Assembly (NCBI GenBank): GCA_963834935.1
Contig: CAWIDS010000001.1
Location: 367,642 to 431,641, forward strand
Length of the DNA: 64,000 nucleotides
Reading direction: 5' to 3'
From: Candidatus Nomurabacteria bacterium
GTDB lineage: Bacteria > Patescibacteriota > Minisyncoccia > Phycocordibacterales > CALRBL01
The notes beneath the pieces are model-generated. The model had not been told where the DNA came from, did not search any database, and worked only from the letters and a program-made list of their open reading frames with translations. Below are positions 42,452-60,191 of this stretch, piece after piece (positions within the stretch are counted from its first letter, which is position 1; each line of letters opens with the position of its first letter). The position numbers were made by a program, and so were the translations under genes.

Positions 42452-43111
42452 TTACTTCACGATACGGCCGTAATCGTTAAACACGAGCACTTTCCAGGGA
42501 TTCTTGCTGCGCCATTTCTGGAGAGGGGAGTATTGGACAACGGTCACCGCAGCGTTGTTTATAGGATTGAGAAAATCTAGTTTGACGAATTCGTGGGATT
42601 CAAGCTTGTTGCCTTTCTCGATGTAGGAGATGACCATCTTCAGGAAGATGCGGTGAGAGACGCACATGATGTGTTTTTCCGGCCGGGCAGCGAGGAATGC
42701 AAGCAGATTCTCGGCCCGTTTCCTCAGGTCTTCGAAGTTTTCTTCGTCCGAATAACGAAGGTCGCTCTGATGGAAGCTCCGGTCGATGACATCCATTATC
42801 TTCTGGACTTCAGGAGAGTCCGCATCCTTTCCTACGATTTCCGAAGGATTCTTGCGTTCGATGAGCAGAGGGCTCTCGACGATCTTCTTCTTGAGCGTCT
42901 CGTTGATGAAAGTAGAGGTCTCCTTGGCGCGCTGATAGGGGCTCGTGAAGATGATATCGACGGGTATATGCTTGAATCGCTCTCCGACGAATCGCGCCTG
43001 CGTCTGGCCGAGCTCGCTCAAGCTCCCCGATGCTCCTTGGCGGACATTGCTGGCATTATTAGCACTCTGGCCGTGCCTGATGAAATAGATTATTTTTTTT
43101 GACCACCACAT
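42452..43111 (-). CDS. Histidine phosphatase family protein (phosphoglycerate-mutase-like)
   Basis: IYFIRHGQS is the RHG catalytic motif at the N-terminus. Length 219 aa. Confidence 0.75.
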   Translation of the reverse strand: MWWSKKIIYFIRHGQSANNASNVRQGASGSLSELGQTQARFVGERFKHIPVDIIFTSPYQRAKETSTFINETLKKKIVESPLLIERKNPSEIVGKDADSPEVQKIMDVIDRSFHQSDLRYSDEENFEDLRKRAENLLAFLAARPEKHIMCVSHRIFLKMVISYIEKGNKLESHEFVKLDFLNPINNAAVTVVQYSPLQKWRSKNPWKVLVFNDYGRIVK

Positions 43112-43161
43112 GCGGATAAATATATCATATCTTCATCATCATTTTATGATAATATGGAAGA

Positions 43162-48863: not shown

Positions 48864-48936
48864 GCCATTGTAGCTCAGTTGGTAGAGCACTCCATTGGTA
48901 ATGGGGAGGTCTCCGGTTCAATCCCGGACAATGGCT
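48864..48936 (+). tRNA. tRNA-Thr (anticodon GGT)
   Basis: Manual cloverleaf: acceptor GCCATTG/CAATGGC, D-arm GCTC-AGTTGGTA-GAGC, anticodon arm CTCCA-TTGGTAA-TGGGG (anticodon GGT), T-arm TCCGG-TTCAATC-CCGGA. Confidence 0.85.
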
Positions 48937-48967
48937 CAGCGATGGGTGCGGTGTCGGCCCGCGCAAT

Positions 48968-49040
48968 GCCGAAGTAGCTCAGTTGGTAGAGCAATGCTTT
49001 CGTAAAGCAGAGGTCGCGAGTTCGATTCTCGCCTTCGGCT
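48968..49040 (+). tRNA. tRNA-Thr (anticodon CGT)
   Basis: Acceptor GCCGAAG/CTTCGGC, D-arm GCTC-AGTTGGTA-GAGC, anticodon arm ATGCT-TTCGTAA-AGCAG (anticodon CGT, 27:43 mismatch), T-arm GCGAG-TTCGATT-CTCGC. Confidence 0.8.
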
Positions 49041-49091
49041 CACTGTTTCCGCCACTTAGACTTTTCTTTCCTAATTTAGTAGACTTCCGAT

Positions 49092-49793
49092 ATGAACACA
49101 CAAAAGAAATATATCGTTTCAGCCATAGTGGCAATCATAGTCATAGGTATCCTTGTTTATAGACAGCATCAATATCAAAACCTGCCGGTGAGCGATGGAA
49201 GCCTGACAAGCCAAAGCACTTCTACTAGTTCAACAGCGACTTCTACATCTGCATCTGCATCTTCAACTTCATCTGCGACAAATCCAGGCTTTGCTGTCGT
49301 TTCGGTCAATGGCTTGAACGGCTACTCGGATTTCGGCTTCAGCTTCAACTATCCTTCATCGCTCAAGCTTTCTCAATCAGCTTCGCCGGTCCAGGAAGTG
49401 ACAGGAGGATTCGTCGCTACCGCCAACGGATTGAATGACACCACCTCGATGGCAACGCCTTCGAACACCACCGATATCTCGAGCTTCAGCGTGATAAAGG
49501 CTGCAGGAGTCAGCTCGGCAGCCTGCATAGCAGCCCCTGTCGGAAACGATTGGCTAAAAGATCTTGGAAAATCGACTATAAACGCTAATACGTTCTACAA
49601 ATACGAATATGGAAGCAAGAGCGGCAGCCGGTATTTCCAGACTGATGAATACGTCAGCGAGATTAACGGCAATTGCTACAAGGTAAGCGTCAGCAATGTC
49701 GGAACCCTTCCTCAGTCCGCAGCAGAAAGCTCATCGATCACGCAGTCGCTTTCAGTCCTTGATACCGTCATAAACTCGTTCAAGGCGCACTAA
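49092..49793 (+). CDS. Secreted/membrane-anchored Ser/Thr-rich hypothetical protein
   Basis: N-terminal TM/signal segment (IVSAIVAIIVIGILVY), then a poly-S/T/A low-complexity linker and a globular C-terminal domain. The stop is 1 nt before the prfB start. Confidence 0.5.
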   Translation: MNTQKKYIVSAIVAIIVIGILVYRQHQYQNLPVSDGSLTSQSTSTSSTATSTSASASSTSSATNPGFAVVSVNGLNGYSDFGFSFNYPSSLKLSQSASPVQEVTGGFVATANGLNDTTSMATPSNTTDISSFSVIKAAGVSSAACIAAPVGNDWLKDLGKSTINANTFYKYEYGSKSGSRYFQTDEYVSEINGNCYKVSVSNVGTLPQSAAESSSITQSLSVLDTVINSFKAH

Positions 49794-49794
49794 T

Positions 49795-50676
49795 TTGATG
49801 ATAGGATCCATCGAAAAAGAAAAGCGGATCCAGGAAATAGAAGAGCTGATGCTGGACGGCGATTTCTGGAAAGACAAAAGCAAAGCGCAGGAAATCGTCC
49901 GCGAATACGAGCAATTGAAAAGTGGGGAATCGGATGCTCCCGGCTATGACGCCGGCGACGCCATCATTACTATATTTTCCGGGGCAGGTGGCGACGATTC
50001 CGAGGATTTTTCCCGCATGCTTCTTCAGATGTACGAACGCTACATCGCCAAACGCGGCTGGCAGACGCAACTTATTCACGAGAACAAGAATGACCAAGGC
50101 GGCTATCGCAATATCACCTTCGAGGTAAAAGGCAAGAATGCCTATGGCGACTTGAAAAGGGAATCCGGCGTGCATCGCCTGGTCCGCCTTTCGCCGTTCA
50201 ATTCCAAGAAGCTCCGCCACACCTCATTTTCGATGGTGGAAGTCATTCCAAAATTCGACAAGACCGCGCCGCTCGAACTCAAGGAAGACGAAATCGATAT
50301 CACTATTGCCCGCGCCGGCGGCCCAGGCGGACAGAACGTTAACAAGCGCGAAACGGCAGTCCGCATCGTCCACATTCCGACCAAGCTTTCGGTCCATGTC
50401 ACATCGGAACGCAGCCAAGCCCAGAACAAGGAGAAGGCGCTTGCCATCCTCAAGGGGAAAATTTATGCCCGCCAGGAAGAGGAGCGCATCAAGAAGGAAA
50501 AAGGCATGTATGTCTCGAAGACCACCGATATCGAGTGGGGCAATCAGATCCGCTCGTACGTCCTTCATCCCTACAAGTTGGTCAAAGATCACCGTACCAA
50601 CGTCGAGATACATGATGCCGACAAGGTTCTTAACGGATATCTTGACGAATTTATTGAGGCTGAGCGAGCGCTTTAG
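49795..50676 (+). CDS. prfB: Peptide chain release factor 2 (no programmed frameshift detected)
   Basis: SPF tripeptide anticodon motif (RLSPFNS) and GGQ motif (GGPGGQNVNK). The N-terminus aligns to the post-frameshift part of E. coli RF2. TTG/ATG start at 49795/49798. Confidence 0.85.
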   Translation: MMIGSIEKEKRIQEIEELMLDGDFWKDKSKAQEIVREYEQLKSGESDAPGYDAGDAIITIFSGAGGDDSEDFSRMLLQMYERYIAKRGWQTQLIHENKNDQGGYRNITFEVKGKNAYGDLKRESGVHRLVRLSPFNSKKLRHTSFSMVEVIPKFDKTAPLELKEDEIDITIARAGGPGGQNVNKRETAVRIVHIPTKLSVHVTSERSQAQNKEKALAILKGKIYARQEEERIKKEKGMYVSKTTDIEWGNQIRSYVLHPYKLVKDHRTNVEIHDADKVLNGYLDEFIEAERAL

Positions 50677-50757: not shown

Positions 50758-51438
50758 ATGATAAATTTCGACAACGTCTCAAAAATATACTCCGATAACA
50801 CCACTGCCCTTGATAATATTTCCTTCAGGATTGCTCCGAAGGAATTCGTCTCCATCGTGGGACAGTCGGGGGCAGGCAAGACCACCATCATCAAGATGAT
50901 TCTCGGCGAGGAAAAGCCCACCTACGGCTCCGTCCATTATGAGGAAACGGACATCCACTCCCTTAATCGTAAGGAAATGAACGAATACCGCCGGAAAATC
51001 GGCACCGTCTTCCAGGACTTCCGTCTCTTGGCTCACAAGAATGTCTTCGAGAACATTTCGTTCGCCATGGAGGCGGCCGGAAGGACGGAAGAGGAGATAG
51101 TCGTCGACGTGCCTCATGTCCTTGAGCTTGTTGATCTCGGCAACAAGATCTGGAATTTTCCCTATCAGCTGTCGGGAGGAGAGAAGCAGCGAGTAGCCAT
51201 TGCCCGGGCTCTCGTTAATCAGCCGGACATCATCATTGCCGACGAGCCGACAGGAAACCTCGATCCGCTCAATACCTACGAAATCATCCAGATCCTGAAG
51301 AAGATCAATGATCTCGGCACCACAGTGGTGTTGACGACCCACAATAAGGGGGTGATCGATTCACTCGGCAAGCGCGTCATTACCATGGAGCGTGGTAAGA
51401 TAGTGCGTGACGACAAGAAAGGCACGTATATTCTGTAA
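50758..51438 (+). CDS. ftsE: Cell-division ABC transporter ATP-binding protein FtsE
   Basis: Walker A is GQSGAGKTT, the ABC signature is LSGGEKQRVAIARAL, and Walker B is IIIADEPTGNLD. Confidence 0.85.
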   Translation: MINFDNVSKIYSDNTTALDNISFRIAPKEFVSIVGQSGAGKTTIIKMILGEEKPTYGSVHYEETDIHSLNRKEMNEYRRKIGTVFQDFRLLAHKNVFENISFAMEAAGRTEEEIVVDVPHVLELVDLGNKIWNFPYQLSGGEKQRVAIARALVNQPDIIIADEPTGNLDPLNTYEIIQILKKINDLGTTVVLTTHNKGVIDSLGKRVITMERGKIVRDDKKGTYIL

Positions 51439-51450
51439 TAAATCATAAAA

Positions 51451-52377
51451 ATGTTCTGGACCAAAGTAAAAAGAATAATCAAGGCAGGGTGGGTGAGCTT
51501 CGTGCGAAACGGCTCGGTATCCCTTGCCTCGACTCTGGTGATGACGGTTACCCTTTCGGTCATCACCTCGCTCGTCTTTACCGGCGCCCTTCTCCAGTCG
51601 ACTCTTAACGGCATCAAGGAGAAAGTGGACATCAATATCTATTTCGACAATAGCGCTACCGACGATCAGATAATGGCTTTCAAGAAGGCGCTCGATGCCC
51701 AGCCGGAAGTGGCCGCCACCACATATACCACTGCCGACCAGGCTCTTGCCAATTTCCGTGCCCGCCATCAGGACAATGCCTTGCTCATGAGCGCTCTCGA
51801 TGAAGTCGGAGGCAATCCTCTCGAGCCGACCATTAATGTCAAAGCCAAGGACCCTTCTCAATACCAGACTCTCGCCGATTTCATCCAGACGGAGAACGCT
51901 TCCGGCAACAATACCGTCGGCATCGTCAAGAAAGTGAGCTATGAGCAGAACAAGGACGCTATAGACGCCCTCGACCGCATCATTCATTCATCCGAACGCC
52001 TCGGTATCGTCATCGCCCTTTTCTTCATTTTGGTTTCCATTCTCATCACTTTTAATACCGTACGCCTCGCTATTTACGTCTCGCGCGATGAGATTTCTGT
52101 CATGCGCCTGGTGGGAGCGTCCGCACGCTATATCAAGGGGCCGTTTCTCGTCGTTGGAATCATTTACGGTATAGTCGGCGCTATTATCACCTTGCTCATC
52201 GCTTATCCTGTGGCCTATTGGCTCGGCCCCATCACTTACAACCTCGGCACCGGCTTGAATATCTTCACATATTATCTCAGCAACTTCCTTGAGATCGCTG
52301 CAGTCGTCTTCGGCGCAGGAATCATCTTCGGCGCCATCTCCAGCTACTTGGCAGTGGAGAAATATATCAAAGTCTAG
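51451..52377 (+). CDS. ftsX: Cell-division permease-like protein FtsX
   Basis: It is adjacent to ftsE. The topology is one N-terminal TM helix, a periplasmic domain, then 3 C-terminal TM helices (FtsX-like permease fold). Confidence 0.8.
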   Translation: MFWTKVKRIIKAGWVSFVRNGSVSLASTLVMTVTLSVITSLVFTGALLQSTLNGIKEKVDINIYFDNSATDDQIMAFKKALDAQPEVAATTYTTADQALANFRARHQDNALLMSALDEVGGNPLEPTINVKAKDPSQYQTLADFIQTENASGNNTVGIVKKVSYEQNKDAIDALDRIIHSSERLGIVIALFFILVSILITFNTVRLAIYVSRDEISVMRLVGASARYIKGPFLVVGIIYGIVGAIITLLIAYPVAYWLGPITYNLGTGLNIFTYYLSNFLEIAAVVFGAGIIFGAISSYLAVEKYIKV

Positions 52378-52398
52378 CTTGAAAAATGAAATATAAAA

Positions 52399-52437
52399 AA
52401 GCCGCACGTCCCTGTGAGGGGAAGTGCGGCGTAGTCA
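52399..52437. terminator. Bidirectional terminator between ftsX and paralog A
   Basis: An A-run precedes the hairpin GCCGCAC-GTCCCTGTGAGGGGAA-GTGCGGC. Confidence 0.5.
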
Positions 52438-52451
52438 GCCGGACGAATTGC

Positions 52452-53117
52452 TTAAGCTGGAATGCCTTGAGGAGAATCTCCGGGCTTGAAGACGTAGAAG
52501 TAGCTTTTCGGTTCAAGAGGAAAACCAAGTTCGTTCATGACGTCATAGAGATCGTCAAAAAGGGATCCCTTTCTTCCGTCAATCATCTCTTCAGCGGCTC
52601 GTTTCAGCATGCCACCGAGCTCGCGGGCGACGATGTTGTCATCGATGACCACAGTAGCTGGATGTCGGAGCAGCGAATCGAAATTCGGGTGCTCTACAAC
52701 CTTTACTGCCAGCACCTTGACGAAGCCGCTGCGCTTCAATTTTTTCCGTACTGTCCGCCATTTTCTGGCCAGGTCGAGGCAGTCCTCATTCAACTTCGGA
52801 TGCTTCAGGCTGATCCACAATACGTAACAGTCAAAACCGACGATGTCGAGGTCTCCGATATGCAAAAGGCTTGCCAGCTTGAGTCCTGAATGGAACCATA
52901 ATCCGAACATCAGCAGGCCGAAGGCCAGGAAGATGAGGGACTGGATGATATGCGTTCGCCGGCTGTTGGCCATAGCGAGATATTCTTCTGCAGATCTGTC
53001 GATCAGATCGTCGTCGGCTTGTGCCCGAGCGAAAAGAAGCCCGAGCAGGTTGAAGGTTGATAGTGTCGCTTTCTCGAGAGAGAAAGCCCGTTGCGGGTTA
53101 GGAGTCAAAGAGCTCAT
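52452..53117 (-). CDS. Paralogous 2-TM membrane protein family member A (unknown function)
   Basis: Shares RSAEEYLAM(A/V)NSR, an (L/V)AR.W.TV..KL..SGF block and a C-terminal D.Y......GF...P..Y block with ORF 53227..53949. It has its own promoter (TTGACA-N17-TACTAT on the minus strand at 53128–53156). Confidence 0.5.
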   Translation of the reverse strand: MSSLTPNPQRAFSLEKATLSTFNLLGLLFARAQADDDLIDRSAEEYLAMANSRRTHIIQSLIFLAFGLLMFGLWFHSGLKLASLLHIGDLDIVGFDCYVLWISLKHPKLNEDCLDLARKWRTVRKKLKRSGFVKVLAVKVVEHPNFDSLLRHPATVVIDDNIVARELGGMLKRAAEEMIDGRKGSLFDDLYDVMNELGFPLEPKSYFYVFKPGDSPQGIPA

Positions 53118-53127
53118 ACGGCTTGAA

Positions 53128-53156
53128 ATAGTACTTCACTTAAGTTGTTTTGTCAA
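53128..53156 (-). promoter_or_regulatory. Sigma70-like promoter (minus strand) TTGACA-N17-TACTAT for paralog A
   Basis: Plus-strand ATAGTA at 53128–53133 and TGTCAA at 53151–53156, 17-nt spacer. It is followed 10 nt later by the gene start. Confidence 0.5.
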
Positions 53157-53173
53157 TGATAATGAATTAAAAA

Positions 53174-53208
53174 ATGACTGCACCGGCAAGGTGCAGTCAT
53201 GGGTCCTG
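53174..53208 (-). terminator. Intrinsic terminator downstream of paralog B (11-bp perfect stem plus U-tract on minus strand)
   Basis: The stem is TGACTGCACC...GGTGCAGTCA, flanked by AAAAAA on the plus strand (U-run when read on minus). Confidence 0.6.
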
Positions 53209-53226
53209 AAATGAAATCCAGCCGAA

Positions 53227-53949
53227 TTACGAGCCGGACGATGTCGGCGCAAGCACCGTGTCGTCCTCTAAGTAATACGCTATCGGACGGACAGCAAAGC
53301 CGACATCGCGAGCAAACTCGTAAATATCGCTGAACGTATCGATGAGCTCTTCACAGTGTTCCTGGAATTCTTCCTTTCTTTCCTCTACGCGGATCATCTC
53401 CGACAGCTCCAGCAGTTTTTTGAAGAACAGTTCGCTGAACATCACCTCAAGAGCATCGGGCTGCACCGGCTGGTGCAGCTCGTCTTGGATGTCGGGAGAC
53501 GACGTTCGAATGATTTCTGCAAGCTCGCTCGCAAAGCCGCTCTGAACAAGTTTTATTTGCACCGTTTTCCAGTATCTTGCCACAGCACGGACATTCTCAT
53601 CCGGGCACGGGCACGTGGAGCGAAATTGCAGGATCCAGGTGACAATGGCGGCGTCGAAGAAAAATGAGGCGTAGGAGAATCTCGCGTTTTTGGTCCACAG
53701 CCCGAGACTGATACAGGCGACAAGCGCCAAGACAAGAAACGCGGCGCAGATCATCTGGTTCCACCTCGAATTGACCATGGCGAGGTATTCTTCCGCCGAT
53801 CGCGCTGAGGCAATCTGGATGTTGATGGAGCTCACCTTGTTGATCATCTCGCGGCTGAACCTCAAGCCGAAGAGGTTGAGGATTGCGTGGCGCGCCTCCT
53901 TTTTGGTGAAGACGCGCATTTCATTAGGTTCAGTATTTAAAGGTCTCAT
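53227..53949 (-). CDS. Paralogous 2-TM membrane protein family member B (unknown function)
   Basis: See member A for the shared blocks. Its own terminator lies downstream and a TTGACA-containing promoter-like element upstream (plus 53994–53999). Confidence 0.5.
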   Translation of the reverse strand: MRPLNTEPNEMRVFTKKEARHAILNLFGLRFSREMINKVSSINIQIASARSAEEYLAMVNSRWNQMICAAFLVLALVACISLGLWTKNARFSYASFFFDAAIVTWILQFRSTCPCPDENVRAVARYWKTVQIKLVQSGFASELAEIIRTSSPDIQDELHQPVQPDALEVMFSELFFKKLLELSEMIRVEERKEEFQEHCEELIDTFSDIYEFARDVGFAVRPIAYYLEDDTVLAPTSSGS

Positions 53950-54040
53950 ATGTGCATATATCCACTAAACAAATTACGTCGATAGGCTCATTTTGTCAAT
54001 AAAAAAGCCCCGCTGGGGCGGGGCTGTTCATGCGCATGTA

Positions 54041-54604
54041 TTACGCATGAACTTCGAATCTCATATTCCAGGTGACTTGTCTGAAGCAGAGGACGTCCTC
54101 TTTTGCTGCGGCAAGCTGCCGTGTCCTCCTGCTTCGTTCCATGACATTACCGGCGTGAAGGCGCCATTCGCCGGGATCAATGAGCTGTGTGATCTCGGAG
54201 TCGATCCAAGTAATCCTTGTCTCGATGCAATCTTCGACGATCTCGATGAGAAGCGGGATTTCTTCTTCACGCGTCGCCAGGACGCGCGAGGGAATCTTTT
54301 TGCCCCGGATCTTTTGGGCTATTTCCGCCACGATTCCGCCGCGGAGCGCACACTTCCTCATTCTCGACCATTCTTTCCCCACCATGCGCTCCGTCTTGCT
54401 GACGTATATTTCACGCTTGGTGGGGAAGAAATAATCAAAGAAGAAGGCGGCGATCAAGAACAGCAGCGCAAACACCGAGGGTGTAACGATGTAGTTCGGC
54501 AGTGGATGGTTTCCCTTATTGATGTATGTTATTGCCCCAAGGACAAGAGCCAATACCGCTACAGCGGAGAGGAAGACAGCGGTCCTTTTCCGCCATCTGA
54601 GCAC
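54041..54604 (-). CDS. Paralogous 2-TM membrane protein family member C (N-terminally shorter)
   Basis: Starts directly at the RW..(A)VFL...A..LG TM block that is shared with members A/B. A promoter TTGACA-N17-CATAAT lies on the minus strand at 54763–54791 (about 150-nt leader). The antisense 312-aa plus-strand ORF was rejected. Confidence 0.45.
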   Translation of the reverse strand: MLRWRKRTAVFLSAVAVLALVLGAITYINKGNHPLPNYIVTPSVFALLFLIAAFFFDYFFPTKREIYVSKTERMVGKEWSRMRKCALRGGIVAEIAQKIRGKKIPSRVLATREEEIPLLIEIVEDCIETRITWIDSEITQLIDPGEWRLHAGNVMERSRRTRQLAAAKEDVLCFRQVTWNMRFEVHA

Positions 54605-54839
54605 CTTGTTCCGGGACTTTTCAGCATTCAGGCCGAAGTTTTTCAGATAGCCTCCCCAGCGGGCTTCAGCCCACAGGTAAGCGAAGTAGCAGCCGAGGAT
54701 TTCCAGGCCTTCGCCTCGGAGTCCTCTCCTTTAGGTTTGGGTTCGTGTGTCATAAAATGTGCTTCTAGGCGGATTATGCCCCTCGAAAGTAAAAGTGTCA
54801 ACAGGAAGCAGCTAGCCGGCTGTGATAAAATAAAATTCA

Positions 54840-56507
54840 ATGAAAAAACACAAATATATTTTCGTTGTCGGAGGAGTGATGTCCGGAGTCGGAAAGGGAA
54901 TCACCACCTCCTCTATCGGAACAATATTTGAAGCTAAAGGTTACAAAGTAAATATCGTAAAAGCAGATCCCTATTTGAACGTCGACGCAGGAACTATGAA
55001 CCCCACCGAACACGGTGAGGTTTTTGTTTTGAATTCCGGACTGGAGACTGATCAAGATATGGGAAATTACGAACGCTTCATGAATCGCGATCTGACCGCC
55101 GACGACTACATGACTTCCGGCATGGTCTACAAGCACGTCATCGACAAGGAGCGGGCACTCGGTTTCAAAGGCAAGTGCATCGACGCCGACAACATCCGCG
55201 ACGAGATCGTCCATCGCTACGAGAACGCGGCGCGTACCAATCGTTCTGACATTTCGATTATTGAGATCGGAGGAACGGTGGGGGACTATCAGAACATCAT
55301 GTTCATCGAAGCCGCCCGTGTTTTGAAATTGAAACAGCCGGACGACGTGGTCTTCATGATGGTTTCGTACTTGCCGATTCCTGGCAAGCTCGGTGAAATG
55401 AAATCGAAACCCACCCAGAATGCCATCCGCCAATTGCAGTCGCACGGCGTGCAGGCGGATTTCATCATCGCCCGAAGCGACAGGCCTCTCGACAAGAAGC
55501 GCAAGGAAAAGATTGCCTTTTCGTGCAGTGTGCCTGCGGAAAATGTCATCTCCGCTCCCGACATCGAAAGCATCTACGACGTACCTCTCAATTTCGAGCG
55601 CGATCACATCGGCGAGATGCTTTCTAAGGCTCTCGGTATTAACGGCAGGAAAGTCAATCTGAATGAATGGAAAAAGTTCGTCGGCAAGGTCAAATCAGCC
55701 AAGAAAAAAGTGAATATCGTCGTTGTGGGAAAATATTTCGACACAGGTGATTTTGTTTTGTCCGACGCGTATGTATCCGTCATCGAAGCGATCAAATTCT
55801 CCTCGTATCATCAGGGAGTGAAGCCGATTCTCACTTGGGTCAATGCCAAGGATTTCGAAAAGAAAAGCCCGCAGGCCATCAAGAAGCTGCTTCAGACCAA
55901 GCTCGGCAAAGCGGACGGCATCCTGGTGCCTGGCGGCTTCGGCGAGACGGGCATTGAAGGCATGATAAACGTCATCCAGTTCGCCCGCGAGAAGAAGATT
56001 CCGTATCTCGGCCTCTGCTACGGCATGCAATTATTGGTCATCGAATTCGCACGGCACGTCGCTCACATGAAAGATGCCCACACTTCGGAGATTGATCCGC
56101 AGAGCAAACATCTGGTCATCGACATCATGGAACATCAGAAAAAACATCTCGCAGAAGGAAGATATGGAGCCTCGATGCGCCTCGGCTCGTATCCCTGCAT
56201 CCTGAAGAAGGGAAGCATTGCCGAGACCGCCTACCGCACCGCCGGCTGGATCAAGAATGGAAAGATCGACGAGCGCCACCGCCACCGCTATGAAGTGAAT
56301 GCTACGTTCATCAACCACCTGGTCACCGCCGGCCTGACCTTCTCCGGAACTTCTCCTGACAGTGCGCTGATGGAAATCGCCGAACTGCCGAAATCAAAGC
56401 ATCCCTTCTTCCTCGGCGCTCAGTTCCATCCCGAATTCCTGGCCCGCCCTTTGCGCCCGCATCCGCTGTTCAGCGAGTTTATAAAAGTTGCAGGGAAGGG
56501 AAAATAA
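54840..56507 (+). CDS. pyrG: CTP synthase
   Basis: KYIFVVGGVMSGVGKGITTSSIG marks the N-terminal synthetase domain. GLCYGMQ plus His/Glu mark the glutamine amidotransferase domain. Confidence 0.95.
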   Translation: MKKHKYIFVVGGVMSGVGKGITTSSIGTIFEAKGYKVNIVKADPYLNVDAGTMNPTEHGEVFVLNSGLETDQDMGNYERFMNRDLTADDYMTSGMVYKHVIDKERALGFKGKCIDADNIRDEIVHRYENAARTNRSDISIIEIGGTVGDYQNIMFIEAARVLKLKQPDDVVFMMVSYLPIPGKLGEMKSKPTQNAIRQLQSHGVQADFIIARSDRPLDKKRKEKIAFSCSVPAENVISAPDIESIYDVPLNFERDHIGEMLSKALGINGRKVNLNEWKKFVGKVKSAKKKVNIVVVGKYFDTGDFVLSDAYVSVIEAIKFSSYHQGVKPILTWVNAKDFEKKSPQAIKKLLQTKLGKADGILVPGGFGETGIEGMINVIQFAREKKIPYLGLCYGMQLLVIEFARHVAHMKDAHTSEIDPQSKHLVIDIMEHQKKHLAEGRYGASMRLGSYPCILKKGSIAETAYRTAGWIKNGKIDERHRHRYEVNATFINHLVTAGLTFSGTSPDSALMEIAELPKSKHPFFLGAQFHPEFLARPLRPHPLFSEFIKVAGKGK

Positions 56508-56563
56508 CGTTATTGTAGGCAAGCAGTTTTATCGGCCCTATGTTACTAATCTGGGCCAAACAT

Positions 56564-56637
56564 TGCGGGATCGTCTAATGGTAGGACTACAGATTCTGGA
56601 TCTGTGTATCTTGGTTCGAGTCCAAGTCCCGCAGCCA
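56564..56637 (+). tRNA. tRNA-Gln (anticodon CTG), 3' CCA encoded
   Basis: Acceptor TGCGGGA/TCCCGCA (U1–A72), a 3-bp D-stem GTC/GAC, anticodon arm ACAGA-TTCTGGA-TCTGT (anticodon CTG), T-arm CTTGG-TTCGAGT-CCAAG, discriminator G, then CCA. Confidence 0.85.
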
Positions 56638-56734
56638 ACACGTGCTAGCACATTTGTCAAGAGTAACTCGTGCGCACTAGTCGCGTCTGAAAAGTAATCA
56701 TCTAACTGAGATTTGTTGCTATAATACTAGGTAT

Positions 56735-57058
56735 ATGGAAAAACCTAATTCCGCATTACTGGAAGAAAATATGAAAGCTTCTGGATCAGACTCTGAAGTG
56801 TCAGGAGAAAAAGAGGTCTCAGAAGCAGAAAACAGTCATACAGAATTAGTAAAATTTAGCAAAAGATATTCTCACGAAGGTCGTCAAAAGATAGCTGAAG
56901 AAATAAAGGAGTTACGTTTTCAGTATTTTAAAAAGGAAAAAGGAAATCCTGAACGTCAAAAAACTATTGATGAACAAGAAAAAAGTATCGAGGTACTTCA
57001 AAAAGAAAAAGAACAATGTACCGGACCCCTTTCTTTAGACACTCATTCTACTCACTAA
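56735..57058 (+). CDS. Lys/Glu-rich coiled-coil hypothetical protein, 3' end truncated by IS insertion
   Basis: The last 14 codons (..CTGPLSLDTHSTH*) are read from the IS terminal inverted repeat that begins at 57017. Confidence 0.35.
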   Translation: MEKPNSALLEENMKASGSDSEVSGEKEVSEAENSHTELVKFSKRYSHEGRQKIAEEIKELRFQYFKKEKGNPERQKTIDEQEKSIEVLQKEKEQCTGPLSLDTHSTH

Positions 57059-57856
57059 GTTTAACTCTTTTTTCTGTATTTTCGCAAATTCTGACGGAGA
57101 CATTTTAAGTGCGGAATGTATGCGGCTTTGATTGTAGTAGTGGATCAGTCGGTACATTTCTGAGACGAGTTCACCGAGTGTTTTGAATCGGGAAGGATCT
57201 CCAAGCTCCACCTTGAATTTGTCATAGAACGATTCCTGGTAGCCGTTCTCCCATGGACAGCCGGGAGCTGAACGGGAAATGGATACTCCGACTGTTTGCA
57301 ATGCTCCAACAAATGTCTCCGAATTGTACTCACTGCCATTGTCGGAGTGAAATATTTCCGGTCTTGAATTTGAAAGCATCGCATTCATCAAGGCTGACAA
57401 GGTCAGTTGCACCGAATGGTTGGTGTAGACCGACACACCAACCACTTTCCTGGTGAACAAGTCCTCAACGGTTGCCACATACACAACCTTCCCTTGAAAA
57501 GGAATTCTGGTGAAGTCCGACACCCAGATATGGTTCTCGCATGAAGGGTATTCCGTCAACAACAGATTGGGGTAAGTGACCTTGATATTCCTTGTTTTCT
57601 TCCATTTTCTGCCACGCCTGCGATATGCTTTGATGCCGAATATGCTCATGACTCTTTGAACAGGTTTTCGGTTCATTTTGAGGTGGATAGCAATCCTTCT
57701 TGAGCCGTATGAGGGATGCTCCCTGAGGGTTTCCTCAATCCGGCACTTCAGCACCCAATCCCTGTCAGGTTTCTTTGGCTTGTAGTACAAAGTGCCTCGA
57801 GAAACGCCAAGCTCCCTGGCAAGCGTTGATTTGTCAGAAGATTTCATACTCCTCAA
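57035..57856 (-). CDS. IS3-family transposase OrfB (integrase core, DDE)
   Basis: WVSDFTRIPF..VYVATVEDLFTRKVVG ... HSDNGSEYNS ... PWENGYQESF give the D, D and E catalytic residues in rve spacing. Confidence 0.85.
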   Translation of the reverse strand: MRSMKSSDKSTLARELGVSRGTLYYKPKKPDRDWVLKCRIEETLREHPSYGSRRIAIHLKMNRKPVQRVMSIFGIKAYRRRGRKWKKTRNIKVTYPNLLLTEYPSCENHIWVSDFTRIPFQGKVVYVATVEDLFTRKVVGVSVYTNHSVQLTLSALMNAMLSNSRPEIFHSDNGSEYNSETFVGALQTVGVSISRSAPGCPWENGYQESFYDKFKVELGDPSRFKTLGELVSEMYRLIHYYNQSRIHSALKMSPSEFAKIQKKELNLVSRMSV

Positions 57857-58907: not shown

Positions 58908-60191
58908 TTATTTTTTGTTCAGATCAAGCAACCATTCGTACAAAGGCTTAAACACAATCGTCACATCGTCTTTCTTAACCTCACGCTTATCATTCCACGT
59001 CAAAATAGTAAGCTTATTCACATTGAGCTCCTTCCCAGCCTCAACAAGTGCCCGTACTTCTCTCTGCTCGACTTCTGGGTTGCTTGCCTCGTAGCAGACC
59101 TGTATAAGCTCGAGTACTTCATTTCCTTTCTTAACAACAAAATCAACCTCTTTTTGGTTTCGAGTATGGTAATAAAACAATTCTCTACCAGGCTCATTGC
59201 CTTGCTTTACCAATTCGGTAAAAACAAGGTTTTCCATCAGCTTGCCATTGTTTGGAGAATGCTGGACCGCCTTTGCCGCCACAAATCCGTTATCAACCAC
59301 GTATGCTTTCTTTGGAGATCGCAACCGGAGACCTACTTTGGCTGAGAATCGATTCAGAGTGAATATCAAATACGCTTCGGTAAGATATCCGAGATACTTT
59401 TCTATAGTAGTCCCGCTCTTTGATCCAAGTGCCAACGCCATCTTCCGTATGCTGTAGAGCGAGGTGAAATTATTTACGAGATACGTTCCAAGACCGTCTA
59501 TCTGTCCGGAAAATCGCACATGATGCCTTCGCACCACATCCTTAAAAAGGAGTGAATCAAAAAGCACATCAAGATAGCCTCGAGGATCAACGTCTTTAAG
59601 CACGACTTCGGGATAACCACCGTTTGTCATGTATTGGTTAAGAATCTGCAAAAGCTGTCCGGACCCAGTCGGAGAAGCGAGATTTCCCTCGGTAAGTTGA
59701 AATCCTTTAGCTTTCAGTATTTCATTGAAATCAAAAGGCAATATCTGTATCGGTATATGTCGTCCCGTAAGTGCCGTAGCCAGTTCTTTTGAAAGCAATC
59801 GAGCGTTCGATCCGGTAATAACCAGATTATATCCTTCACGATGAAGCCTGTTTACGAATAATTCCCATTTCGGTAAGTTTTGTATTTCATCAAAGAGAAT
59901 ATATTTCGTATCTCCATAGGCAAGTTTTAATTCTTGCATCAACTCATTGAGGTCGAGCTGATCTTCACCAGGAAGCGATTCGTCATCAAAATTAAAATAG
60001 GCAAAAGACTGATCCTTGAGCAGCATCAGCGAAAATACGGACTTGCCTGCGCGGCGTGGTCCGAGAATAACTTTTATAAGGTCAGATGAGAGCCATTTTT
60101 TAGCCTCTTTTTCCTTGGTTCGCTCTATGTAAGGAAGTGACAAAAGTCGCTCTTTTTCCTCTTTTTGTTTTAAAACAGTCGTTTTTAGCAT
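58908..60191 (-). CDS. AAA+ ATPase, COG1373-like (AAA_14 plus DUF4143 architecture)
   Basis: Walker A is ILGPRRAGKS and Walker B is ILFDEIQNLPKWE. The C-terminal region is typical of the DUF4143 family. Confidence 0.7.
   Translation of the reverse strand: MLKTTVLKQKEEKERLLSLPYIERTKEKEAKKWLSSDLIKVILGPRRAGKSVFSLMLLKDQSFAYFNFDDESLPGEDQLDLNELMQELKLAYGDTKYILFDEIQNLPKWELFVNRLHREGYNLVITGSNARLLSKELATALTGRHIPIQILPFDFNEILKAKGFQLTEGNLASPTGSGQLLQILNQYMTNGGYPEVVLKDVDPRGYLDVLFDSLLFKDVVRRHHVRFSGQIDGLGTYLVNNFTSLYSIRKMALALGSKSGTTIEKYLGYLTEAYLIFTLNRFSAKVGLRLRSPKKAYVVDNGFVAAKAVQHSPNNGKLMENLVFTELVKQGNEPGRELFYYHTRNQKEVDFVVKKGNEVLELIQVCYEASNPEVEQREVRALVEAGKELNVNKLTILTWNDKREVKKDDVTIVFKPLYEWLLDLNKK

Follow-up and report, generated by a model that had tools for sequence, protein, structure and literature searches.

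What are the three consecutive open reading frames (ORFs), here called g1, g2 and g3, that lie on the minus strand between ftsE/ftsX and pyrG in a member of the Patescibacteria (CPR, Paceibacteria-like)? We address this question in a window of 64,000 nucleotides, the whole stretch of DNA that was analysed. An original prediction, made from the letters of the DNA, described a tandem array of three paralogous two-helix membrane proteins, each transcribed as its own unit, and suggested sensor, envelope or defence roles. We discuss the reality of the genes, their kinship, the predicted topology of their products and their transcription signals, and weigh the explanations that these features allow. 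In the reading that we prefer, and hold at about even confidence, the trio comprises genuine genes, each expressed separately, from an orphan family that is very small and evolves fast, and whose products are membrane-anchored, all-helical and non-enzymatic. We see the family as ordinary among orphan accessory genes, with no sign of a novel kind of system.

All three ORFs occur at the coordinates first proposed for them (Table 1), and their placement between ftsE/ftsX, recognised by Pfam, and pyrG is likewise correct. The flanks, prfB-ftsEX and pyrG, are chromosomal housekeeping genes; the GC content of the trio equals that of the flanks, without compositional anomaly. An Rfam scan of 51000-57000 matched tRNA-Gln alone. 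The 64-kb window holds no further paralog; one candidate, 42455-43132, was set aside as a weak chance match, a His-phosphatase-like soluble protein.

Table 1. Features of the g1-g3 locus and its surroundings (positions within the window)
Feature	Positions	Strand	Description
g1 terminator	52395..52430	minus	stem-loop 52401-52430 and U-tract 52395-52400; between convergent ftsX and g1
g1	52452..53117	minus	221 aa, subfamily A; P0002 in public protein sets
g1 promoter-like site	53128..53156	minus	TTGACA-N17-TACTAT
g2 terminator	53168..53200	minus	perfect 11-bp stem 53174-53200 and U-tract 53168-53173
g2	53227..53949	minus	240 aa, subfamily A; public call P0001 is 230 aa from Met11 (53919)
g2 promoter-like site	53971..53999	minus	TTGACA 53994-53999, 17-nt spacer, weak -10 TAATTT 53971-53976
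g3 terminator	54000..54025	minus	8-bp G+C-rich stem 54006-54025 and U-tract 54000-54005
g3 as called	54041..54604	minus	187 aa from GTG; P0004; subfamily B
Stretch upstream of g3 GTG	54605..54730	minus	42 in-frame codons without ATG, GTG or TTG
Short ORF from ATG 54753	54643..54753	minus	MTHEPKPKGEDSEAKA...; frame differs from g3
g3 promoter-like site	54773..54801	minus	TTGACA-N17-CATAAT, 11/12; 19 nt from -10 to ATG 54753
pyrG start	ATG 54840		divergent from g3 promoter-like site
IS3 transposase	57035-57856		beyond pyrG and tRNA-Gln

Long ORFs also run along the plus strand of this interval. When codon scores were compared over six frames, the minus frame was highest in each of g1, g2 and g3. 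The scores of the trio (0.07-0.12, vs 0.18-0.49 for housekeeping genes) fit young or weakly constrained genes and also partial decay. The original prediction had allowed that the plus-strand ORFs might be the ones conserved in related genomes; conservation sits instead in the minus frame, in the gene at 10989-11633 of L004, the closest related MAG, and in P0003, a protein from an unrelated metagenome contig. The longest plus-strand ORF over the homologous L004 gene is 75 aa. The plus-strand ORFs of the window were rejected as true genes: they have no family matches, score lower on codon use and are not conserved in L004, and one of them runs over the start of pyrG. By these measures g1, g2 and g3 are real minus-strand genes, and the long plus-strand ORFs are antisense shadows.

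Among about 15 billion proteins searched, the family numbers five in all, from three uncultured bacteria: the trio, L004p and P0003. L004p is encoded by a single gene at the matching ftsX|pyrG position of L004 and was found solely by inspecting the related locus anchored on ftsX. P0003 is encoded by one gene between ruvB and yebC, with ruvC also among its neighbours. When 1.84 billion representatives were scanned exhaustively by HMMER with a g1+g2 profile, P0003 was recovered at E=4.9e-5 and, beyond the queries, nothing else. Word-index searches of 5.8 billion clusters returned the members themselves alone, and no further relatives came from family scans of genome, metagenome and viral contigs or from tblastn against phage genomes. 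Pairwise matches link the members in a chain: g2-P0003 (1e-12), L004p-P0003 (3e-6) and g3-L004p (3e-5). Aligned together, the five diverge too much for the alignment to seed a scan of contigs. Outside the family, scans of all five members against Pfam, NCBIfam, PADLOC and PHROGs gave nothing above noise, a PDB sequence profile search gave no match, and a Foldseek search with the g2 model, covering PDB and BFVD, found nothing below E=0.19. A lineage-restricted minus-strand paralog family without a recognisable homolog had been proposed, and these five members and database scans bear the proposal out.

Kinship within the trio is uneven. Between g1 and g2 it is firm (BLASTP E=2e-20, 28% identity across 229 columns; z=29.6 for the global alignment against shuffles). 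For g3, pairwise BLASTP reaches just E=0.059 with g1 and 0.018 with g2, and the g1+g2 profile matches it at E=0.77. It joins solely via the outside relatives: against a profile made from the remaining four proteins, g3 as called scores 25.1 bits (E=1.5e-6 in a set of 2154 ORFs). The best match of L004p is g3 (E=9.7e-5). All four sequence blocks said to unite the trio are present in g1 and g2, whereas g3 lacks both RSAEEYLAM and the C-terminal D.Y..GF..P.Y, which are limited to g1, g2 and, in part, P0003. As the alignments read, the claim of three paralogs with common blocks is overstated; there are two subfamilies, g1/g2/P0003 (A) and g3/L004p (B). A recent tandem duplication of g1 or g2 was rejected as the origin of g3, since g3 is closer to L004p, and g1 and g2 are closer to P0003.

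In g1 an N-terminal helix and the RSAEEYLAM motif precede one strong and one weak hydrophobic helix; a basic helix, LARKWRTVRKKLKRSGF, follows the membrane, and the C-terminal part is helical, with an LGF..P..Y tail. For g2 the start at 53949 is favoured because the PN..R.F block common to g1 lies upstream of Met11. Within the 31-nt RSAEEYLAM block, g1/g2 differences are synonymous in four of five cases, which indicates purifying selection on it; recent gene conversion was rejected as its cause.

The annotated GTG start of g3 excludes the conserved N-terminal region. The stretch upstream of it encodes the helix typical of the family N-terminus (LEILGCYF) as well as the invariant AE (NAEKSRNKVLRW), and its translation aligns with L004p PAEKCRLEVLLWK. 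With this stretch added, the four-member profile scores 33.3 bits (E=4.6e-9); with g3 joined to the ORF from ATG 54753, it scores 35.5 bits. Because the promoter-proximal ATG is in the other frame and the conserved N-terminus has no canonical start, g3 looks N-terminally disrupted, by frameshift or by truncation. A one-base correction near 54706 would join the ATG 54753 ORF to the g3 frame and yield a full-length family protein of 237 aa; the region reads identically in an independent Logan assembly. Programmed frameshifting was considered and rejected, as no slippery heptamer was seen by eye in 54646-54730.

The order prfB-ftsE-ftsX-gap-pyrG is kept in L004, L007 and L008. In L004 the ftsX-pyrG gap of 837 bp holds one family gene, the positional counterpart of g3. 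No family gene is present in L007 and L008, which stand one step further out and keep the ftsX-pyrG adjacency, or in L005, L006, L009 and L010. The window and its relatives make a series of zero, one and three copies, and the difference in evolutionary rate is measured: flanking proteins are 75-91% identical to those of L004, vs about 26% for g3 and L004p. The DNA of L004p is identical in all three samples that carry it and is therefore uninformative on selection. The locus is a clean, well-bounded case of how ultra-small CPR genomes, at one fixed position between genes, gain, duplicate and lose orphan genes for membrane proteins. As it stands, the family is one more uncharacterised family among many hypothetical Patescibacteria membrane proteins, and its importance is modest.

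The proteins are all-helical and probably form hairpins of N-in/C-in topology, whose predicted outer loops span 1-9 residues. On the side of both termini the predicted hairpin is bordered by K/R-rich segments, with a K/R cluster after helix 2. The second hydrophobic helix is strong in g3 alone, where two strong TM helices are followed by the post-membrane helix VGKEWSRMRKCALRGGIVAEIAQKI. In g1 and g2 the second helix is weak (Kyte-Doolittle maximum 1.2-1.5) and charged, with Asp residues, so their hairpin topology is insecure. Confidence in the structure models, built on five sequences, is medium to low (pLDDT 72 and 62); the AF2 model of g2 (pLDDT 71.9, pTM 0.62) has nine helices. Two of the suggested roles find no support here. 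Given predicted outer loops of this length, with both soluble parts on the K/R-rich, presumably cytoplasmic side, the proteins would not be variable extracellular sensors. An anti-sigma or HTH fold is likewise unsupported: the N-terminal region is modelled as a single long helix, there is no Pfam/NCBIfam match, and no sigma-factor gene lies in the neighbourhood.

Predicted transcription signals accompany each gene. The promoter-like sites proposed for g1 and, from its TTGACA at 53994, for g2 were recovered; the CATAAT site of g3 had been placed at 54763-54791, 10 nt off. In g1 only 10 nt separate the -10 element from ATG 53117, so the mRNA leader is predicted to be very short or absent. The -10 element of g2 agrees with the consensus at 3/6, below the filter of the promoter scan, and the site was read from the sequence; it has ATTGACAAAA in common with the g1 site and directly adjoins the U-tract of the g3 terminator. 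The g3 site is one of just two 11/12 sites on both strands of the window. Promoter-like sites across the window number 21, vs 13.4 +/- 3.1 in shuffles, a modest excess. All three terminators combine a hairpin with a U-tract on the minus-strand RNA, as proposed, but the first hairpin is imperfect (7+4 pairs with an internal loop). Their folds reach -22.7 kcal/mol (g1, z=-5.0), -23.2 kcal/mol (g2, z=-5.0) and -18.1 kcal/mol (g3, z=-3.5), with 0/200 shuffles as good in each case. As sequence patterns, a terminator for each copy and near-consensus promoters for two support separate units. Every member, in all three genomes, has this cassette layout: a promoter-like site, then the ORF, then an intrinsic terminator that is strong.

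In the preferred reading of an orphan accessory family, each protein would insert as a helical hairpin with both ends cytoplasmic. A conserved core would lie at the inner membrane face, made up of the N-terminal helix (L..LG..F), the invariant Ala-Glu right before helix 1, and the basic helix after helix 2 with its invariant W...G...A; the remaining C-terminal helical region would vary freely. Aligned, the five proteins have F, AE, W, G and A as their sole invariant residues. No set of His, Cys, Ser or Asp is conserved, so binding or oligomerising at the membrane is most likely, not catalysis, and the missing catalytic motifs suggest tethered adaptors or scaffolds. The genes themselves would be dispensable, and their gain, duplication and decay would all take place at a variable site 3' of ftsX.

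A conflict role of the family is speculative, and the toxin/immunity or defence roles first suggested have neither a significant PADLOC or PHROG match nor a partner gene to support them. We consider it unlikely, if still the foremost alternative, that these are stand-alone conflict genes for two-helix membrane-perturbing or phage-excluding effectors, like SLATT/CBASS 2TM, Abi or superinfection-exclusion proteins, with a phage arms race driving their diversification and moron-like promoter-gene-terminator cassettes carrying them. Extreme divergence beside well-conserved flanks, patchy presence among close relatives, tandem multiplication and the autonomous cassettes of all three genomes are consistent with such genes, as are the predicted two-helix hairpin with its helical cytoplasmic part and the Asp inside helix 2 in all three window copies. 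SLATT proteins, reportedly described by Burroughs et al. 2015, are SMODS and SLOG-associating two-transmembrane effectors, the 'Effector 2TM' of PADLOC. SLATT/CBASS 2TM effectors, like the family, have two close membrane helices and helical cytoplasmic segments in about 200 aa, carry no catalytic motif and evolve fast. The similarities found are, however, non-significant and confined to the hydrophobic region: PADLOC '2TM effector' matches for g3 alone (E=0.011 and 0.014) and BFVD matches of the g2 model to SLATT-annotated proteins (E=2-6). None of the five proteins matches a SLATT Pfam family at E<=1, and the medium-confidence g2 model gave no significant fold match. Unlike those effectors, the family is monocistronic; no partner or adjacent sensor or signal-generating gene (SMODS/CD-NTase cyclase, SLOG, TIR, RT) is linked to its members, whose neighbours are ftsX, pyrG, ruvB, yebC and ruvC. 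A pore-former under a near-consensus promoter without visible control would also be hard to tolerate.

Phage morons are autonomous promoter-gene-terminator cassettes between conserved genes. Each family member is likewise a unit complete in itself, from promoter-like site to strong terminator, and the cassettes lie between conserved housekeeping genes and are patchy among close relatives, a moron-like pattern. Unlike morons, they sit in a chromosomal context rather than in a prophage or mobile element, their GC is uniform with the flanks, and viral contigs and phage genomes gave no relatives. Class II holins and pinholins come close in a predicted N-in/C-in two-helix hairpin and a charged cytoplasmic C-terminus; the family proteins (187-240 aa) are two to three times larger than holins (about 65-150 aa), have a structured helical C-terminal region, and lack adjacent endolysin or phage genes and any relevant PHROG match. 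Chlamydial Inc proteins have a bilobed hydrophobic domain and are type III secretion substrates inserted into the host-derived membrane. Nothing suggests secretion of the family, and the likeness is one of architecture alone: two hydrophobic helices in a hairpin whose loop is very short, N- and C-termini on the same side, helical C-terminal parts, tandem paralogs, and a lack of cross-family sequence similarity.

A bolder form of the conflict reading, which we regard as improbable, would make these proteins unrecognised Patescibacteria-restricted, stand-alone membrane-hairpin immunity proteins. Expressed constitutively from their cassettes, they would stop phage at the inner membrane, by blocking infection or by aborting it. 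Their diversification would be fast enough to leave positional orthologs about 26% identical where housekeeping proteins remain 75-91% identical, and the array would be a small, evolving defence repertoire in which g3 has been frameshifted off. If the proteins were phage-exclusion factors, a new defence family would be added for a phylum in which, to our knowledge, experiments have revealed almost nothing.

Accessory factors of the envelope or of division, membrane-anchored cytoplasmic partners of FtsEX kept beside ftsX, are very unlikely. Predicted membrane anchoring agrees with such partners, as does the place beside ftsX that the window and L004 have in common, but the family genes lie on the opposite strand with a terminator between them and ftsX, are absent from L007 and L008 despite the ftsX-pyrG adjacency and from the four other relatives, and occur in the third genome between ruvB and yebC; they also diverge far too fast for partners of a conserved machine. 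Least probable of all is largely non-functional DNA, whether decaying remnants of duplicated orphans or mis-called ORFs with the plus-strand genes real: the unusable start of the conserved g3 N-terminus, the low codon scores and the long plus-strand ORFs would suit it, but g1 and g2 are intact and differ in their shared motif mostly at synonymous sites, amino-acid conservation follows the minus frame across three genomes, the plus-strand ORFs are set aside on the grounds given above, and promoters and terminators are correctly sited for the minus-strand genes.

The feature found between ftsX and pyrG is genuine, though of an ordinary kind. It is an orphan family of helical, membrane-anchored proteins from a CPR (Patescibacteria) lineage, undescribed so far and very narrow in distribution. 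The locus comprises two intact close paralogs (g1 and g2) and one distant, N-terminally disrupted paralog (g3), each with its own putative expression signals. It lies downstream of prfB and upstream of a tRNA-Gln gene, and run ERR10755936, assembled independently in Logan, contains identical DNA.

Table. Features of the ftsX-pyrG locus and its surroundings (window positions), and the corresponding gaps in related loci
Feature	Position or size	Strand	Remarks
tRNA-Thr genes, two in tandem	48864-49041	+	anticodons GGT, CGT; between ftsH and a 233-aa ORF
prfB region	49092-50676	+	prfB ORF with TTG start
ftsE	50758-51438	+	Pfam
ftsX	51451-52377	+	Pfam
ftsX-pyrG interval	52386-54830		2.46-kb gap filled by three minus-strand ORFs
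g1	52452-53117	-	ORF, 221 aa
g1 promoter-like site	53128-53156		TTGACA-N17-TACTAT; 10 nt to ATG
g2	53227-53949	-	ORF, 240 aa
g2 promoter-like site	53994-53999 (-35)		perfect -35, abuts g3 terminator; weak -10 TAATTT
g3	54041-54604	-	ORF, 187 aa, GTG start
g3 promoter-like site	54773-54801		TTGACA-N17-CATAAT; one of just two window sites (both strands) matching 11/12
pyrG	54840-56507	+	Pfam
tRNA-Gln	56564-56637	+	
IS3-type transposase	57035-57856	-	rve domains
AAA_14/DUF4143 ATPase	58908-60191	-	
ftsX-pyrG gap, L004	837 bp		one family gene
ftsX-pyrG gap, L007	334 bp		no gene
ftsX-pyrG gap, L008	about 490-570 bp		no gene

By codon usage, the minus-strand frame outscores the other five in each gene interval (0.12, 0.105, and 0.066), and the antisense frame ranks second in all three, as a shadow frame should. 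Long plus-strand ORFs have no family matches, the one at 53993-54931 scores -0.083 and overlaps the pyrG start, and in L004 (the locus of the closest related MAG) no plus-strand ORF over the homologous gene exceeds 75 aa; on these grounds they are rejected as genes. Nor are they the conserved ORFs in relatives, since it is the minus frame whose amino-acid sequence is conserved in other genomes.

By sequence comparison, g1 and g2 are clearly paralogs (BLASTP E=2e-20, 28% identity; z=29.6 against shuffles). The original prediction of three paralogs with shared blocks holds for this pair, which has all four blocks, but neither RSAEEYLAM nor the C-terminal LGF..P..Y tail occurs in g3. Pairwise, the match of g3 is confined to one short stretch past helix 2, at no better than E=0.059 (g1) and 0.018 (g2), and the g1+g2 profile reaches only E=0.77. 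Its membership became demonstrable only once two outside members were found. The first is P0003, a 227-aa protein from another metagenome contig that aligns end to end (E=4.9e-5); an exhaustive HMMER search of 1.84 billion representatives with the g1+g2 profile found no protein other than P0003, g1, and g2. The second is L004p (P0006, 214 aa), the sole minus-strand gene product between ftsX and pyrG in MAG GFS_5272. A chain of pairwise similarities joins them: g2-P0003 (1e-12), L004p-P0003 (3e-6), g3-L004p (3e-5), and g3-P0003 (4e-4). Read from its GTG, g3 scores 25.1 bits (E=1.5e-6 among 2154 six-frame ORFs) against a profile made from the remaining four. The five proteins form two subfamilies: g1, g2, and P0003 (A) have the C-terminal tail motif, and g3 and L004p (B) lack it. 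The 31-nt RSAEEYLAM coding block (52966-52996 in g1, 53771-53801 in g2) retains 84% DNA identity, and 4 of its 5 differences are synonymous, a pattern in which constraint is visible. This block is also the array's only notable DNA-level repeat.

The reading frame of g3 continues upstream of its GTG through 42 codons, up to 54730, none of them ATG, GTG, or TTG. These codons encode the family N-terminal helix and the invariant Ala-Glu motif: the stretch NAEKSRNKVLRW aligns with PAEKCRLEVLLWK of L004p, and with the codons added, g3 scores 33.3 bits (E=4.6e-9). The sole ATG behind the strong g3 promoter (54753, 19 nt past the -10) is in a different frame; correcting one base near 54706 gives 237 aa, a normal length for the family, and a score of 35.5 bits. 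The 5' region (54605-54753) reads the same in the Logan assembly. Thus, either g3 became a pseudogene by a recent frameshift, or its protein is truncated and begins at helix 1, or both assemblies share an error. The g3 coding region also holds a 19-nt inverted repeat (54370-54432; 84% complementary, 25-nt spacer).

Each gene is followed by a terminator, as proposed: a stable minus-strand RNA hairpin and U-tract at -22.7 (z=-5.0), -23.2 (z=-5.0), and -18.1 kcal/mol (z=-3.5) for g1, g2, and g3, respectively, and no shuffle folds as stably. The strong individual promoters claimed for all three are near consensus for g1 and g3, but the g2 -10 is weak, and the g3 element, though present, sits 10 nt from its predicted position. 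Because of the short distance from its promoter-like site to the ATG, the g1 mRNA would be nearly leaderless. Across the window, promoter-like sites are only modestly enriched (21 versus 13.4 +/- 3.1 in shuffles). The L004p and P0003 genes also have strong terminators of their own, and, as far as sequence patterns show, the promoter-gene-terminator cassette appears to be a family trait. The P0003 gene has a 14-bp terminator stem, and its extended -10 (TGgTAGAAT), about 150 nt ahead of the gene start, implies a leader that is long and possibly structured (signals in L001 231-427 and 1134-1167).

AlphaFold2 models built from the five-sequence alignment are all-helical for g2 (pLDDT 71.9, pTM 0.62, nine helices) and L004p (pLDDT 62.3, first five helices as in g2). 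The modelled order is an N-terminal helix, a long helix holding the AE motif and hydrophobic helix 1, hydrophobic helix 2, two helices with the invariant W...G...A, and a variable helical C-terminal part. An N-in/C-in hairpin is likely, because the predicted loop joining the hydrophobic helices has 1-9 residues and the 25 residues past helix 2 contain 7-9 K/R in 4 of the 5 members. Helix 2, strong in subfamily B but weak and charged in subfamily A, has an aligned Asp in each of the three window copies. The invariant residues are F, A-E, W, G, and A only, and the five-member alignment contains no conserved catalytic-type residue set.

The best-supported mechanism, which we infer with about even confidence, is that these proteins would be non-enzymatic, membrane-tethered cytoplasmic adaptors or oligomers, the conserved core being a collar that surrounds the hairpin at the inner face of the membrane. 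A role in conflict or phage exclusion is the most interesting alternative; we regard it as unlikely, and no test in this analysis supports it directly. The nearest likeness is architectural, to SLATT/CBASS-type 2TM effectors, with weak matches (PADLOC E about 0.01, restricted to the g3 hydrophobic region; BFVD E 2-6), but the operon linkage to a signal-generating enzyme that defines those effectors is absent from family loci. Cassette build and patchy occurrence are reminiscent of phage morons, but there is no prophage, viral homolog, or compositional anomaly here. There is no significant match in Pfam, NCBIfam, PADLOC, PHROG, PDB sequences, or PDB or BFVD folds. The suggested anti-sigma or HTH regulator fails on domain content and neighbors, a role as extracellular sensor on the size of the predicted outer loop, and a holin on size and context.

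No members turned up beyond these five proteins: three word-index searches covering 5.8 billion clusters recovered nothing but the known members, and scans of species-representative genomes, JGI metagenomes, IMG/VR, and phage genomes added none. The order prfB-ftsE-ftsX-[gap]-pyrG is retained in L004, L007, and L008; with the window included, the site carries zero, one, or three copies. The position 3' of ftsX is a variable spot, since L007 and L008 lack a gene there and more distant relatives have unrelated ones. From translations alone, these read as a metallophosphoesterase-like membrane protein (L006 10925-13500), a minus-strand methyltransferase-like gene (L005 2415-5000), and a small cupredoxin-like protein ahead of a giant one of 2927 aa (L010 10925-20280). 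Identity to L004 is 88% for PrfB, 91% for FtsE, 75% for FtsX, and 82% for PyrG, and only about 26% between g3 and L004p. No functional partner is conserved with the family, because the P0003 gene sits between ruvB and yebC-ruvC; an unannotated 200-aa ORF (L001 1773-2375) lies nearby, between yebC and ruvC.

The prfB ORF matches only PCRF domain positions 97-194, plus RF-1; a 233-aa ORF without a Pfam match stops 2 nt ahead of it, and 49000-50000 contains no CTTTGA frameshift site. Past pyrG and tRNA-Gln, the transposase and ATPase genes possibly mark a mobile or variable region beside the locus. GC content is 47.6% in the window, about 50% in the locus, and 38-46% in related loci (L004-L010), a marked shift between close relatives despite the 88-91% FtsE/PrfB identity to L004.
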